Source of the DNA: an uncultured Rickettsiales bacterium
GTDB taxonomy: Bacteria > Pseudomonadota > Alphaproteobacteria > Rickettsiales > CAZAGG01
Assembly: GCA_964484565.1 (NCBI GenBank)
Contig: CAZAGG010000001.1
Span: forward strand, 25,066-89,065
DNA length: 64,000 nt
Direction: 5' to 3'
Shown: positions 31,470-34,297 of the stretch, piece by piece
Layout: every line of letters starts with the position of its first letter
How positions within the stretch are numbered: position 1 is the first letter of the stretch
Program-made: the position numbers and the translations under genes
Notes under the pieces: generated by a model
The model's database searches: none
Seen by the model: only the letters and a program-made list of their open reading frames with translations
Told to the model about the DNA's origin: nothing

Positions 31470-32938
31470 AAAATGCCTTAAAGAATCCTGATTTATTCAG
31501 ACAAGCGGCCTATTTAAACGGCAAGTGGATGGATGTTAATGTTAGTGACAGTGGTGCAAAAAAAATTACCGTTACAAATCCATTTGATGGCACAGTTGTT
31601 GGATACGTCCCTGTTATATCGGCAAATGAAGTTAATAAACTGATTGATGATTCTCACAGAGCATATCTAAAATGGAGAAAAACTACCGCCAAAGAACGTT
31701 CGGCTTTATTAAAAACATGGGCTTCTCTTATTTTACAAAATGTTGATGACCTTGCTTACATTATGACCTCTGAGCAAGGTAAAACTCTTGTTGAGGCGGC
31801 AAATGAAATTAGATACGCTGCATCTTTTGTTGAGTGGTTTGCAGAGGAAGGAAAAAGAGCTTATGGAGATGTAATTCCGACTCCTGCAATTGATAGAAGG
31901 ATTCTTGCAATTAAAGAACCAGTTGGAGTATCTGCGGCGATTACTCCTTGGAATTTTCCCTCATCAATGGTTACTCGAAAAACTGCGCCCGCACTTGCTG
32001 CTGGGTGTTCGATAATACTTAAACCATCTGAGCTTACTCCATTTTCGAGTATTGCGCTGGCGGTTCTCGCTGAACAAGCAGGAATTCCTGCTGGTGTCTT
32101 TAATGTAGTCACTGGAAATGCAGAAGAAATTGGCAATGTATTTTGCACCAATAAAATAGTCAGGAAAATCAGCTTTACTGGCTCAACTGAGGTTGGCAAA
32201 AAACTATACGCAAATTCGGCAGGTGATGTTAAGAGAATATCTTTAGAGCTTGGTGGCAACGCTCCCTTTATAGTGTTTGCCGATGCAAATATTGATATGG
32301 CAATTAAGGCGGTTGTGGCCTCTCGTTTTCGCAACTCTGGACAAACATGCGTTTGTGCAAATAGGATATTGGTTGAGCAAAGCATATATGAAGACTTCCT
32401 AGAAAAACTAGTTGCCGCCGTTGAAACTATTAAATCTGGAAGTGGTTTTGATTCATCAACATCAATTGGACCTCTCATATCAGATAAAGCGGTTTCAAAA
32501 GCAAATTCACTTATAGATGACGCCGTTACAAAAGGTGCGAAAGTGTTATTAGGTGGCACTCATAGTAGATTATCTTATAATCCATCAGTTGTTGCGGGTG
32601 TGACCTGTGAAATGAGAATCTTTAAAGAAGAAATTTTTGCACCCATAGCATCAGTCGTTACATTTAAAGATGAAGAAGAAGCAATTAAACTTGCAAATGA
32701 CACTAACTATGGACTAGCCGCCTATTTCTTCACAGAAGACTATCGAAGAATCATTAGAGTTTCAGAAGCTCTTGAGTATGGAATGATTGGAATCAATGAA
32801 GGATTAATCTCAACCGAAGTTGCCCCCTTTGGTGGATTCAAAGAATCGGGAATTGGTAGGGAAGGCGCGCACCAAGGCTTAGAGGAATATTTAGAAACTA
32901 AATATCTCTGTCTGGGGGGGGATTTAGTTGGCGGATAA
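31466..32938 (+). CDS. gabD: NAD(P)+-dependent succinate-semialdehyde dehydrogenase
   Basis: 490 aa. The N-terminus (M)[20 protein letters not shown] parallels the E. coli GabD N-terminus. ALDH motifs are present ([23 protein letters not shown]), and the C-terminus is KESGIGREG...[12 protein letters not shown]. The GTG start overlaps the alaS TGA (GTGA). Confidence 0.9.
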
Positions 32939-32941
32939 GCT
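32840..32941 (+). repeat. direct repeat copy 1 (functional 3-prime end of gabD)
   Basis: Repeated at 34171-34297. The 69-nt core 32873-32941 aligns to 34229-34297 with about 4 mismatches and two 1-nt indels by hand alignment. An upstream AAAGAATCGGG..GGTAGG block is also shared. Confidence 0.8.
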
Positions 32942-33054
32942 ATAACATATCCTAATCTTTCGACTATGCGTGCAGTTGTAACAAAGAATTAACTTGCGTG
33001 ACGAAAATTTCGCCTTATAAGTTAAATTATGTCAACTTATAGGTTCTTGGTATA

Positions 33055-34197
33055 ATGAAAGATAAAAGAGTTAATCTAGAAACTGCACTAAAATATGCAA
33101 TTTGCCAAATCATTGATTCATTGGAGAGAATCGAAGAGCAGGCACTTGCTAAAAACATGAGCCGTCAGGAATTTTTGCAAGAGCGTTTAGAGAGGCTCCA
33201 AGATATCTTATCTCCAAGAATAGAGAAATTGGAAGAAGAAATCAAAGAACTAAGTAAAGAGCTTGGTAATGATGCAAAACAATATGCACTTAGAGAGCAT
33301 ATCGCGCGAAATTTAGATTCTTCACCTGAAGATGCACAAAAACATTTAAATAAGCATGTTGTAAGATTAGAAAAACAGCGCAAACGTAAAGAAAATAGAA
33401 AGAATTCAGCACAAGAGCGAATTGATAATCTACAGTCAGAAATAAATTCTCTACAAAGTTTTGCAGCAAATATTCATGATAACTTTGGGCGATTTCAAGA
33501 AATGGCAACTAACTTACTTGAAAATATAGACCCCAAAAAACCAGAAGAGATGCAGAAGATATTACAAGAAATATATAGCGGGATTAGAGATGAGATAATA
33601 AATCGTGATGGAGGCAGTTATAAGGGAAGTCTATCTTTAAGGAAATTAGAAATTAAAGATGATTCTTTTTATGAGATTGACGAGGCAGCAGGTTTTTTAA
33701 TACGGGCTGCTATATTTTCATCGCCCGCCATAATGGTAACCTCTTTATTTGGTTTACCGTCTGGAGTTAGAGATATTACATTCTTAGTTACAATAATGTT
33801 AGCTGCATCCCTTTCTTTTGAGATGTCTGATTTTAAAGATAATCCATTTAAAGTTTTACAACCTGCGCATGCATTATTAAATAATATAGTTATGGGTTTT
33901 GCAGAGAGTTTTCATAATGGAGTTGTTGATGGATTTAATCAAAGAAAACTCCGTTTAGCTACTGAAAATCTACCTTCATTAAAAACTCCCTCAATGGCAG
34001 AAATGAATGAGTATTTGGCAAATTTTACAGTTAGACATCCTGATTTAGCTCACCTAATATCATCTGGAGTTCAGCAGGTTATAAATGATAATCAGGAAGT
34101 TCTCACTGAATTGCCTGATTCTGGAGTTTATATTAATCTAGAGGGTGAGTTAGTTGATAACCCAAAATATAAAGAATCGGGTAATAGAGGTAGGTAA
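33055..34197 (+). CDS. hypothetical protein: N-terminal coiled coil plus central bilobed hydrophobic segment
   Basis: 380-aa ORF. Residues about 20-180 are heptad-like and charged (EEIKELSKEL, RKRKENRK). Residues about 211-256 (FLIRAAIFSSPAIMVTSLFGLPSGVRDITFLVTIMLAASLSF) form two adjacent hydrophobic stretches. The last ~9 codons (KESGNRGR-stop) come from the duplicated gabD fragment. The SD is weak. Confidence 0.55.
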   Translation: MKDKRVNLETALKYAICQIIDSLERIEEQALAKNMSRQEFLQERLERLQDILSPRIEKLEEEIKELSKELGNDAKQYALREHIARNLDSSPEDAQKHLNKHVVRLEKQRKRKENRKNSAQERIDNLQSEINSLQSFAANIHDNFGRFQEMATNLLENIDPKKPEEMQKILQEIYSGIRDEIINRDGGSYKGSLSLRKLEIKDDSFYEIDEAAGFLIRAAIFSSPAIMVTSLFGLPSGVRDITFLVTIMLAASLSFEMSDFKDNPFKVLQPAHALLNNIVMGFAESFHNGVVDGFNQRKLRLATENLPSLKTPSMAEMNEYLANFTVRHPDLAHLISSGVQQVINDNQEVLTELPDSGVYINLEGELVDNPKYKESGNRGR

Positions 34198-34297
34198 AGA
34201 TTTCCAGTGAACGTGAAGACCAGCGACGCAAGGCTTAGAAGAAATATCTAGAAACTAAATATCTCTGTCTGGGGGCGGTTTAGTTGGTGGATAAGCT
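34171..34297 (+). repeat. direct repeat copy 2 (decayed duplicate of the gabD 3-prime end)
   Basis: It has the same sequence as 32840-32941 apart from a ~20-nt insertion, point changes and two frame-breaking 1-nt indels. In the gabD frame it reads QGLEEISRN-stop, so it is non-functional. Confidence 0.8.

Follow-up and report, generated by a model that had tools for sequence, protein, structure and literature searches.

Displaced gene ends beside integrated elements are well known. In Escherichia coli K-12, the end of icd is supplied by the cryptic prophage e14 (phage 21 offers a parallel case) and the displaced end is left as the pseudogene icdC; measured from the K-12 record, the two stretches are 92.8% identical over 166 nucleotides (nt), ending 1 nt past the stop codon, with 10 of their 12 differences synonymous, no indels and icdC still in frame. 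Here we describe a locus that belongs to this known kind, and reveals no new mechanism, in the uncultured Rickettsiales bacterium of GenBank assembly GCA_964484565.1, analyzed over a window of 64,000 nt (the whole stretch taken from contig CAZAGG010000001.1). At this locus, the terminus of gabD, the gene for a succinate-semialdehyde dehydrogenase (SSADH), recurs downstream as a frame-broken relic, and the DNA between the two copies carries a single orphan gene. What is new is that two database-wide orphan open reading frames (ORFs), in a lineage without sequenced relatives, have each incorporated relic sequence at their 3' ends.

The likeness to icd and icdC lies in the anatomy. In both cases, the direct repeat is the terminus of the gene (at gabD, ~102 nt with a 69-nt core), it ends 1–3 nt past the stop codon, and the proximal copy keeps the gene intact while the distal copy is left as a fragment. 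The two loci differ in size, content and state of preservation: whereas e14 spans 15.2 kb and carries intE and xisE, the gabD insert measures 1.36 kb, holds a single orphan gene and lacks a recombinase; the gabD relic, unlike icdC, has suffered indels and a 20-nt insertion, suggesting that it is older or more decayed; and only at gabD do both neighboring ORFs extend into the relic.

Streptococcal cis-mobilizable elements (CIMEs) offer a second point of comparison. They are att-flanked, integrase-less remnants of integrative and conjugative or integrative and mobilizable elements (ICEs/IMEs), measure 1.2–13 kb and lie in the 3' ends of fda, rpsI and rpmG (PMC7563491). The gabD insert resembles them in that it is small, falls within the same size range and consists of cargo only, with direct repeats kept at the 3' end of a housekeeping gene and no recombination or transfer genes. 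However, CIMEs are recognized via att sites shared with known ICEs or IMEs, usually in tandem with one, whereas the gabD insert has no known cognate element, integrase or att family, and its repeats, unlike those of CIMEs, are longer and diverged.

Similar end-products are also described for recombination with no dedicated recombinase. In experiments with E. coli, circular molecules bearing part of a gene end entered the chromosome by a single RecA-dependent crossover and gave rise to 109–950-bp duplications (PMC3240628), and for toxin loci it has been proposed that insertions anchored by homology displace the 3' ends of genes (PMC5361080). In these Campbell-type or homology-facilitated illegitimate events, as at gabD, a displaced 3' gene fragment lies downstream of the new DNA. 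Nevertheless, the known natural cases of displacement are polymorphic toxin/immunity loci (Rhs, contact-dependent inhibition (CDI), type VI secretion systems (T6SS)), whose ends differ in function. A C-terminal displacement array of that type was rejected here, since the host gene encodes a metabolic enzyme of the SSADH family and both ends encode the same peptide.

The repeated gabD terminus

The gabD gene itself is intact. The SSADH model TIGR01780 matched GabD with 648 bits, above its cutoff, and the NCBIfam profile PRK11241 aligned up to its position 481 of 482. Both protein termini agreed with those of homologues, the C-termini of which (eight homologues compared) follow the pattern KESGxGREGxxxGLEEYLExKYxCLGG plus 1–5 residues. 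At the other end of the gene, the GTG start overlaps the alaS stop by 4 nt. Judged from these comparisons, copy 1 is the functional end of gabD, and the view taken in an earlier note on this DNA, that it completes a normal GabD C-terminus, can be maintained. Three paralogues of the aldehyde dehydrogenase (ALDH) family lie within 28 kb, namely putA (19097–22192), gabD and another ALDH gene (45674–47251), and are 25–32% identical to one another; the relic is derived from gabD and not from either of the other two.

The same note had proposed that the last ~100 bp of gabD are duplicated downstream, and its coordinates, mismatch counts and spacing all proved correct when the two copies were subjected to formal alignment with shuffled controls. 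A local alignment paired positions 32873–32941 with 34229–34297 (69 nt each), with 63 identities (91%), four mismatches, one +1 indel and one −1 indel, copy 2 having one extra A and missing one base from a G-run. The score of this core alignment (106) was far above that of dinucleotide shuffles (mean 18.2, standard deviation 2.5, maximum 29). When gap extension was made cheaper, in a gap-tolerant alignment, the repeat extended leftwards through GGTAGG to AAAGAATCGGG at 32840 and 34171, reaching a total of ~102 nt in copy 1. This 5' block, far less well preserved than the core, is separated from it in copy 2 by an insertion of ~20 nt (34195–34214). The longest exact identity between the copies is 27 nt (32892–32918 in copy 1), and a 26-nt word common to both is present exactly two times in the whole window (0.00 expected); a repeat scan of the whole window revealed no second repeat of comparable quality. 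The copies are spaced by 1331 nt when measured at the 5' block and by 1356 nt at the core. In both of them, the right edge of the repeat reads TAA-GCT and thus lies 3 nt beyond the gabD stop codon. Depending on where the indels are placed, two or three of the four core substitutions are synonymous, with P = 0.04 only under the favorable alignment.

Copy 1 also contains a perfect 8-bp palindrome, ATATTTAG-AAA-CTAAATAT, at 32887–32905, partly within the 27-nt exact block, which in copy 2 is disrupted by a T-to-C change. This palindrome may once have been bound by a recombinase, or may simply reflect the codons for EYLETKYL.

As had been recognized before, copy 2 is frame-broken: it is unreadable as GabD, being out of frame in all three frames. 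It is composed of the 5' block (34171–34194), the ~20-nt insertion and the core. Predicted folds of both copies were compared with those of shuffled sequences, and neither RNA (z from +0.6 to −1.2) nor single-stranded DNA on either strand (z from +0.5 to −1.8) was significantly structured; nor did an Rfam search return any match in the window or in the relic. As neither copy folds better than shuffles, a terminator, riboregulator or attC-type site seems unlikely, and structured RNA, a terminator or attC were rejected as explanations of the relic.

Between gabD and the pepF-like gene that forms the right-hand flank, no further gabD-derived sequence was detected at either the DNA or the protein level. 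A candidate third partial copy of the gabD end near 33078–33100 was discarded because its score was no better than that of shuffles. The 2.26-kb interval did not match plasmids, phages or IMG/VR, and compositional foreignness of the insert, also considered, was not found. The features of the region are listed in Table 1.

Table 1. Features of the gabD–pepF region (positions in the 64,000-nt window; aa, amino acids).
Feature	Position	Strand	Basis
gabD, NADP-dependent SSADH, intact	31466–32938	+	Pfam Aldedh, 1.6e-167
Repeat copy 1: last 33 gabD codons, stop codon (32936–32938) and 3 nt	32840–32941	+	Alignments
Unique 1229-nt segment between the copies	32942–34170	+	No similarity to gabD, plasmids, phages or IMG/VR
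Promoter-like site ATGTCA-16-TG-TATAAT, 10 of 12 matches (consensus match only)	33029–33056	+	Best sigma-70-like match of the region, extended −10
Orphan ORF, 380 aa, predicted all-helical	33055–34197	+	Host-like coding signal
Repeat copy 2, frame-broken relic of the gabD terminus	34171–34297	+	Alignments
Second orphan ORF, 288 aa from ATG at 35121	34255–35124	−	Coding signal within host range
pepF-like M3 oligoendopeptidase gene, right-hand housekeeping flank of the interval	35192–36952	−	TIGR02290, 2e-192; Pfam Peptidase_M3

Two orphan reading frames that end in the relic

The unique segment is occupied by a 380-aa ORF, the last nine codons and stop of which fall within the relic. There they follow the gabD frame (K-E-S-G), giving a predicted end YKESGNRGR-stop, in agreement with the earlier proposal that this end had been recycled from the gabD fragment; the stop is a TAA that forms the first triplet of the ~20-nt insertion. 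The earlier note overlooked a second orphan, which approaches the relic from the other side. This 288-aa ORF lies downstream of der-pepF, on the same strand as these genes, and it ends within the relic core (34297–34255), the antisense strand of which provides its last ~13 codons and its TAG stop; 43 nt of the relic now serve as its coding sequence. Two convergent orphan ORFs consequently end inside the 127-nt relic, 57 nt of which stay non-coding, with the predicted C-terminal peptides ...YKESGNRGR and ...AYPPTKPPPDRDI. In copy 1, the 1-nt difference in the G-run keeps the equivalent antisense frame from meeting this TAG, which indicates that the stop of the 288-aa ORF depends on a relic-specific change.

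By their coding statistics, both orphans look like real resident genes. Positional GC follows the order GC1 > GC2 > GC3 in each, and neither departs from the range of synonymous codon usage seen among the 54 genes of the window. The frame-specific codon log-likelihood amounts to 0.172 for the 380-aa ORF and 0.119 for the 288-aa ORF (genome mean 0.166 ± 0.040), and drops to between −0.29 and −0.45 out of frame. Such a host-like, frame-specific signal does not point to de novo birth, nor does composition suggest that the genes arrived recently from a foreign source. The suggestion that the birth of a gene can be read here is thus not supported, given the mature codon signal of the 380-aa ORF.

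When both proteins were searched against 5.8 billion protein clusters, only self matches were returned (for the 288-aa protein, P0124). A HMMER search of 1.84 billion representatives with the 380-aa protein yielded a sole non-self match, P0125 (E = 7.8e-11), a public, secreted-looking protein of 1809 aa with nine near-identical tandem repeats of ~188 aa. It aligned with residues ~200–270 at ~33% identity over ~70 residues and with ~30 bits per repeat; as the E-value is summed over nine near-identical repeats, we treated this match as chance rather than homology. Pfam, PHROGs, PADLOC and NCBIfam gave nothing beyond weak coiled-coil noise for the 380-aa protein and no family match for the 288-aa protein, PDB sequence searches were empty, and neither orphan has a paralogue within the window. 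Single-sequence AlphaFold2 models (predicted local distance difference test, pLDDT, of 41 for the 380-aa and 39 for the 288-aa protein) were too poor for a fold search. The possibility that the 380-aa ORF is a degenerate gabD was rejected, since neither blastp nor tblastn detected homology. Its N-terminal ~185 aa are coiled-coil-like and residues ~214–256 are moderately hydrophobic.

The −10 hexamer of the promoter-like site upstream overlaps the ATG of the 380-aa ORF. If this promoter were real, the mRNA would be leaderless, or the ORF would start further downstream, e.g., at Met35 (33157). Promoter-like sites in the region are, at the same time, no more numerous than in shuffles.

Mobile-element signatures, relatives and neighboring genes

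Every ORF of at least 120 aa in the window was scanned with Pfam. The genes proved to be overwhelmingly housekeeping, and no integrase, excisionase, transposase or relaxase was found among them; the earlier statement that no integrase or transposase is present holds at this threshold. Likewise, the 380-aa ORF, the sole gene of the insert, showed no recombinase similarity, the window contains no tRNA genes, and no inverted repeats mark the ends of the insert. A transposon or insertion sequence was rejected on the basis of the lack of a transposase in the Pfam scan, the missing terminal inverted repeats, and a ~100-nt duplication that is far beyond known target duplications. An integron gene cassette was also rejected, as there is no folded attC (single-stranded DNA folds being no better than shuffles), no Rfam match and no integrase in the Pfam scan.

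Searches for relatives pointed to an isolated lineage. The best GabD match was 60% identical among 5.8 billion proteins, and 57%, without synteny, among 185,579 species genomes. The genomic contexts of the best GabD matches (P0005 and P0015) are unrelated to the window. Exact-protein look-ups of the window's own proteins gave no match, and four of the five window proteins queried were found in the collection, all in singleton 90% clusters. A scan of JGI metagenomes with PepF returned five loci (49–58% identity), none with der, gabD or alaS nearby. On one metagenomic contig (P0024, GC 44%), icd (62%) adjoins gabD (60%), which is followed by a convergent mreC, the icd–gabD adjacency being the sole feature shared with the window. 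Because icd and gabD are directly adjacent in this only partly syntenic contig (L092/L093), the icd...gabD stretch of our lineage seems to have been remodelled too.

Several observations on neighboring genes were made in passing. Between icd and alaS lie a PIN-domain (VapC-like) toxin gene (27552–27950, + strand) and a Pfam-less ORF of 149 aa (28167–28616, − strand). Further Pfam-less ORFs stand among the housekeeping genes at 16872–18074, 39935–40570, 50927–52243 and 61218–62096. An ankyrin-repeat protein (42971–43855, − strand), which hints at a eukaryote-associated lifestyle, has a weak paralogue at 12320–13069 (+ strand; 23% identity, E = 9e-9) that has no Pfam match of its own. Lastly, the release-factor ORF at 7346–8563 (− strand; PCRF and RF-1 domains), listed with a TTG start, overlaps the start of glyS (8491–10494, + strand) by 73 nt, and its Pfam domain starts only at residue 62. 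Its true start is probably further downstream, or else a prfB-type frameshift is involved.

Origin of the arrangement and its significance

One reciprocal crossover between the chromosome and a circle bearing a gene terminus would leave a unique segment between two direct repeats of that terminus and keep the proximal one functional. In the sequence of events that we consider, a circular DNA of ~1.36 kb or more, bearing the 380-aa gene and its own version of the last ~100 nt of gabD, would have crossed over once, reciprocally, with the chromosome within the end of gabD. Copy 1, brought in by the circle, would now complete gabD. We infer that copy 2 is the original terminus, which would have been displaced 1.36 kb downstream, lost its function and decayed through two 1-nt indels, the ~20-nt insertion and several substitutions. 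The crossover may have been catalyzed by the site-specific integrase of an integrative element, which would then have lost the integrase and all but one cargo gene to become a remnant like a CIME. Both orphans would have come to end in the gabD relic either at the junction itself or at a later time, the 380-aa ORF from the left and the 288-aa ORF from the right on the opposite strand.

Insertion by a single crossover is, as such, probable. That it was the work of a decayed site-specific integrative element, of the type of e14 or phage 21 in icd, is the version that we prefer, put forward tentatively and as somewhat short of probable. In line with an insertion, the repeat far exceeds its shuffled controls and has no counterpart in the window, and the intervening DNA is likewise unique, with one gene found nowhere else in the searches. 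The direct repeats at the 3' end of the gene flank the insert, as in integrative elements, and the size of the insert would fit integrase-less, att-flanked relics. Moreover, GabD is left complete by the proximal repeat, and the position of the repeat edge in both copies would be expected of incoming DNA that needed to restore no more than the reading frame; if a duplication ended at random, we estimate that such an edge would arise with a chance of ~2%. In this respect, the earlier proposal of an insertion into the gene end with a replacement end (attL/attR-like) is borne out by the anatomy, namely the terminus repeat, its edge past the stop codon, and the intact upstream and decayed downstream copies. 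Calling the arrangement a rare case, on the other hand, was an overstatement, since gene ends displaced beside integrated elements are familiar.

Several findings weigh against a site-specific element. The insert contains no gene for a tyrosine or serine recombinase, and the negative result of the Pfam scan extends this to the whole window, so that the former presence of an integrase would be pure inference. Both orphans are host-like in codon usage and GC, with no compositional foreignness; neither an empty site nor a second occurrence of the element was found, in a lineage whose nearest sequenced GabD and PepF are 60% and 58% identical; and the synonymous excess in the core is ambiguous. In addition, a homology of ~100 nt is long enough for RecA-dependent recombination, for which a site-specific enzyme is not required. 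A Campbell-type integration of a circle carrying the gabD terminus and the 380-aa gene, from a closely related strain and with no mobile element, would give the same topology, and we regard it as a close rival, slightly less likely than a site-specific element. The E. coli experiments cited above show that single crossovers with gene-end-bearing circles yield such duplications, 100 nt at 90% identity or more are sufficient homology, the scan of the window gave no recombinase gene, and the host-like codon usage of the insert fits a closely related donor. However, this course needs an unexplained circularization that joined the 3' end of the 380-aa gene to a K codon of gabD, and a donor whose similarity stops at the stop codon, which would be automatic for an element evolved to restore its target; such events were also very rare in experiments (PMC3240628, PMC5361080).

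The remaining explanations are less likely. The relic is ~90% identical to the resident gabD, while no other public gabD exceeds 60% protein identity, indicating that it stems from this lineage's own gene; together with the compositionally native insert, this would suit an internal tandem duplication, including the gabD 3' end or a whole second gabD, followed by deletions that left ~100 nt fused to a pre-existing neighbor gene. Yet a tandem copy of 32840–34170 predicts a second 380-aa gene after the relic, where none exists, two or more further precise deletions would be required, and nothing in this course accounts for a repeat edge that falls at the stop codon, all of which makes a duplication improbable. 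It is scarcely credible that the assembly collapsed two strain variants of the gabD end, or chained them, within a single contig: although the genome is known from a single contig of 253.6 kb, the 27-nt maximum of exact identity is below usual assembly k-mers, the 20-nt insertion and frame-breaking indels of copy 2 are typical of decay and not of strain variation, and both flanking ORFs continue smoothly into copy 2. We give an equally small chance to a repeat maintained by function, as a shared terminator or a regulatory or recombination site, rather than as a passive scar. The core was kept far better than the 5' block, the relic stands at the meeting point of two convergent transcription units and copy 1 has its palindrome; on the other side, neither copy has significant RNA or DNA structure or an Rfam match, the palindrome is broken in copy 2, only two copies exist in 64 kb, and the preservation is partly explained by the portion of the relic that codes for the 288-aa ORF. 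Insertion with a replacement end stands as the best available reading, and as a probable one.

It is very improbable that the 1.36-kb unit is a live or recently live single-gene cassette, with the gabD terminus as its attachment site, mobilized in trans by a recombinase encoded elsewhere in this unsampled lineage. If it were, this would be an integron-like cassette system in which the end of a housekeeping gene takes the place of attI/attC, and in which the two strands of the decaying displaced end are reused to encode the C-termini of two lineage-specific genes. Evidence of mobility, from relatives or from elsewhere in the genome, would make the locus more valuable.

As an insertion with a replacement end, the gabD locus may serve as a teaching example of gene-end replacement and of relic DNA absorbed into neighboring reading frames. 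It would represent a clean, datable scar that records how a lineage-specific gene came to lie between two housekeeping operons, and in which a discarded gene fragment supplies the stop codons and last codons of two orphan genes, one per strand.

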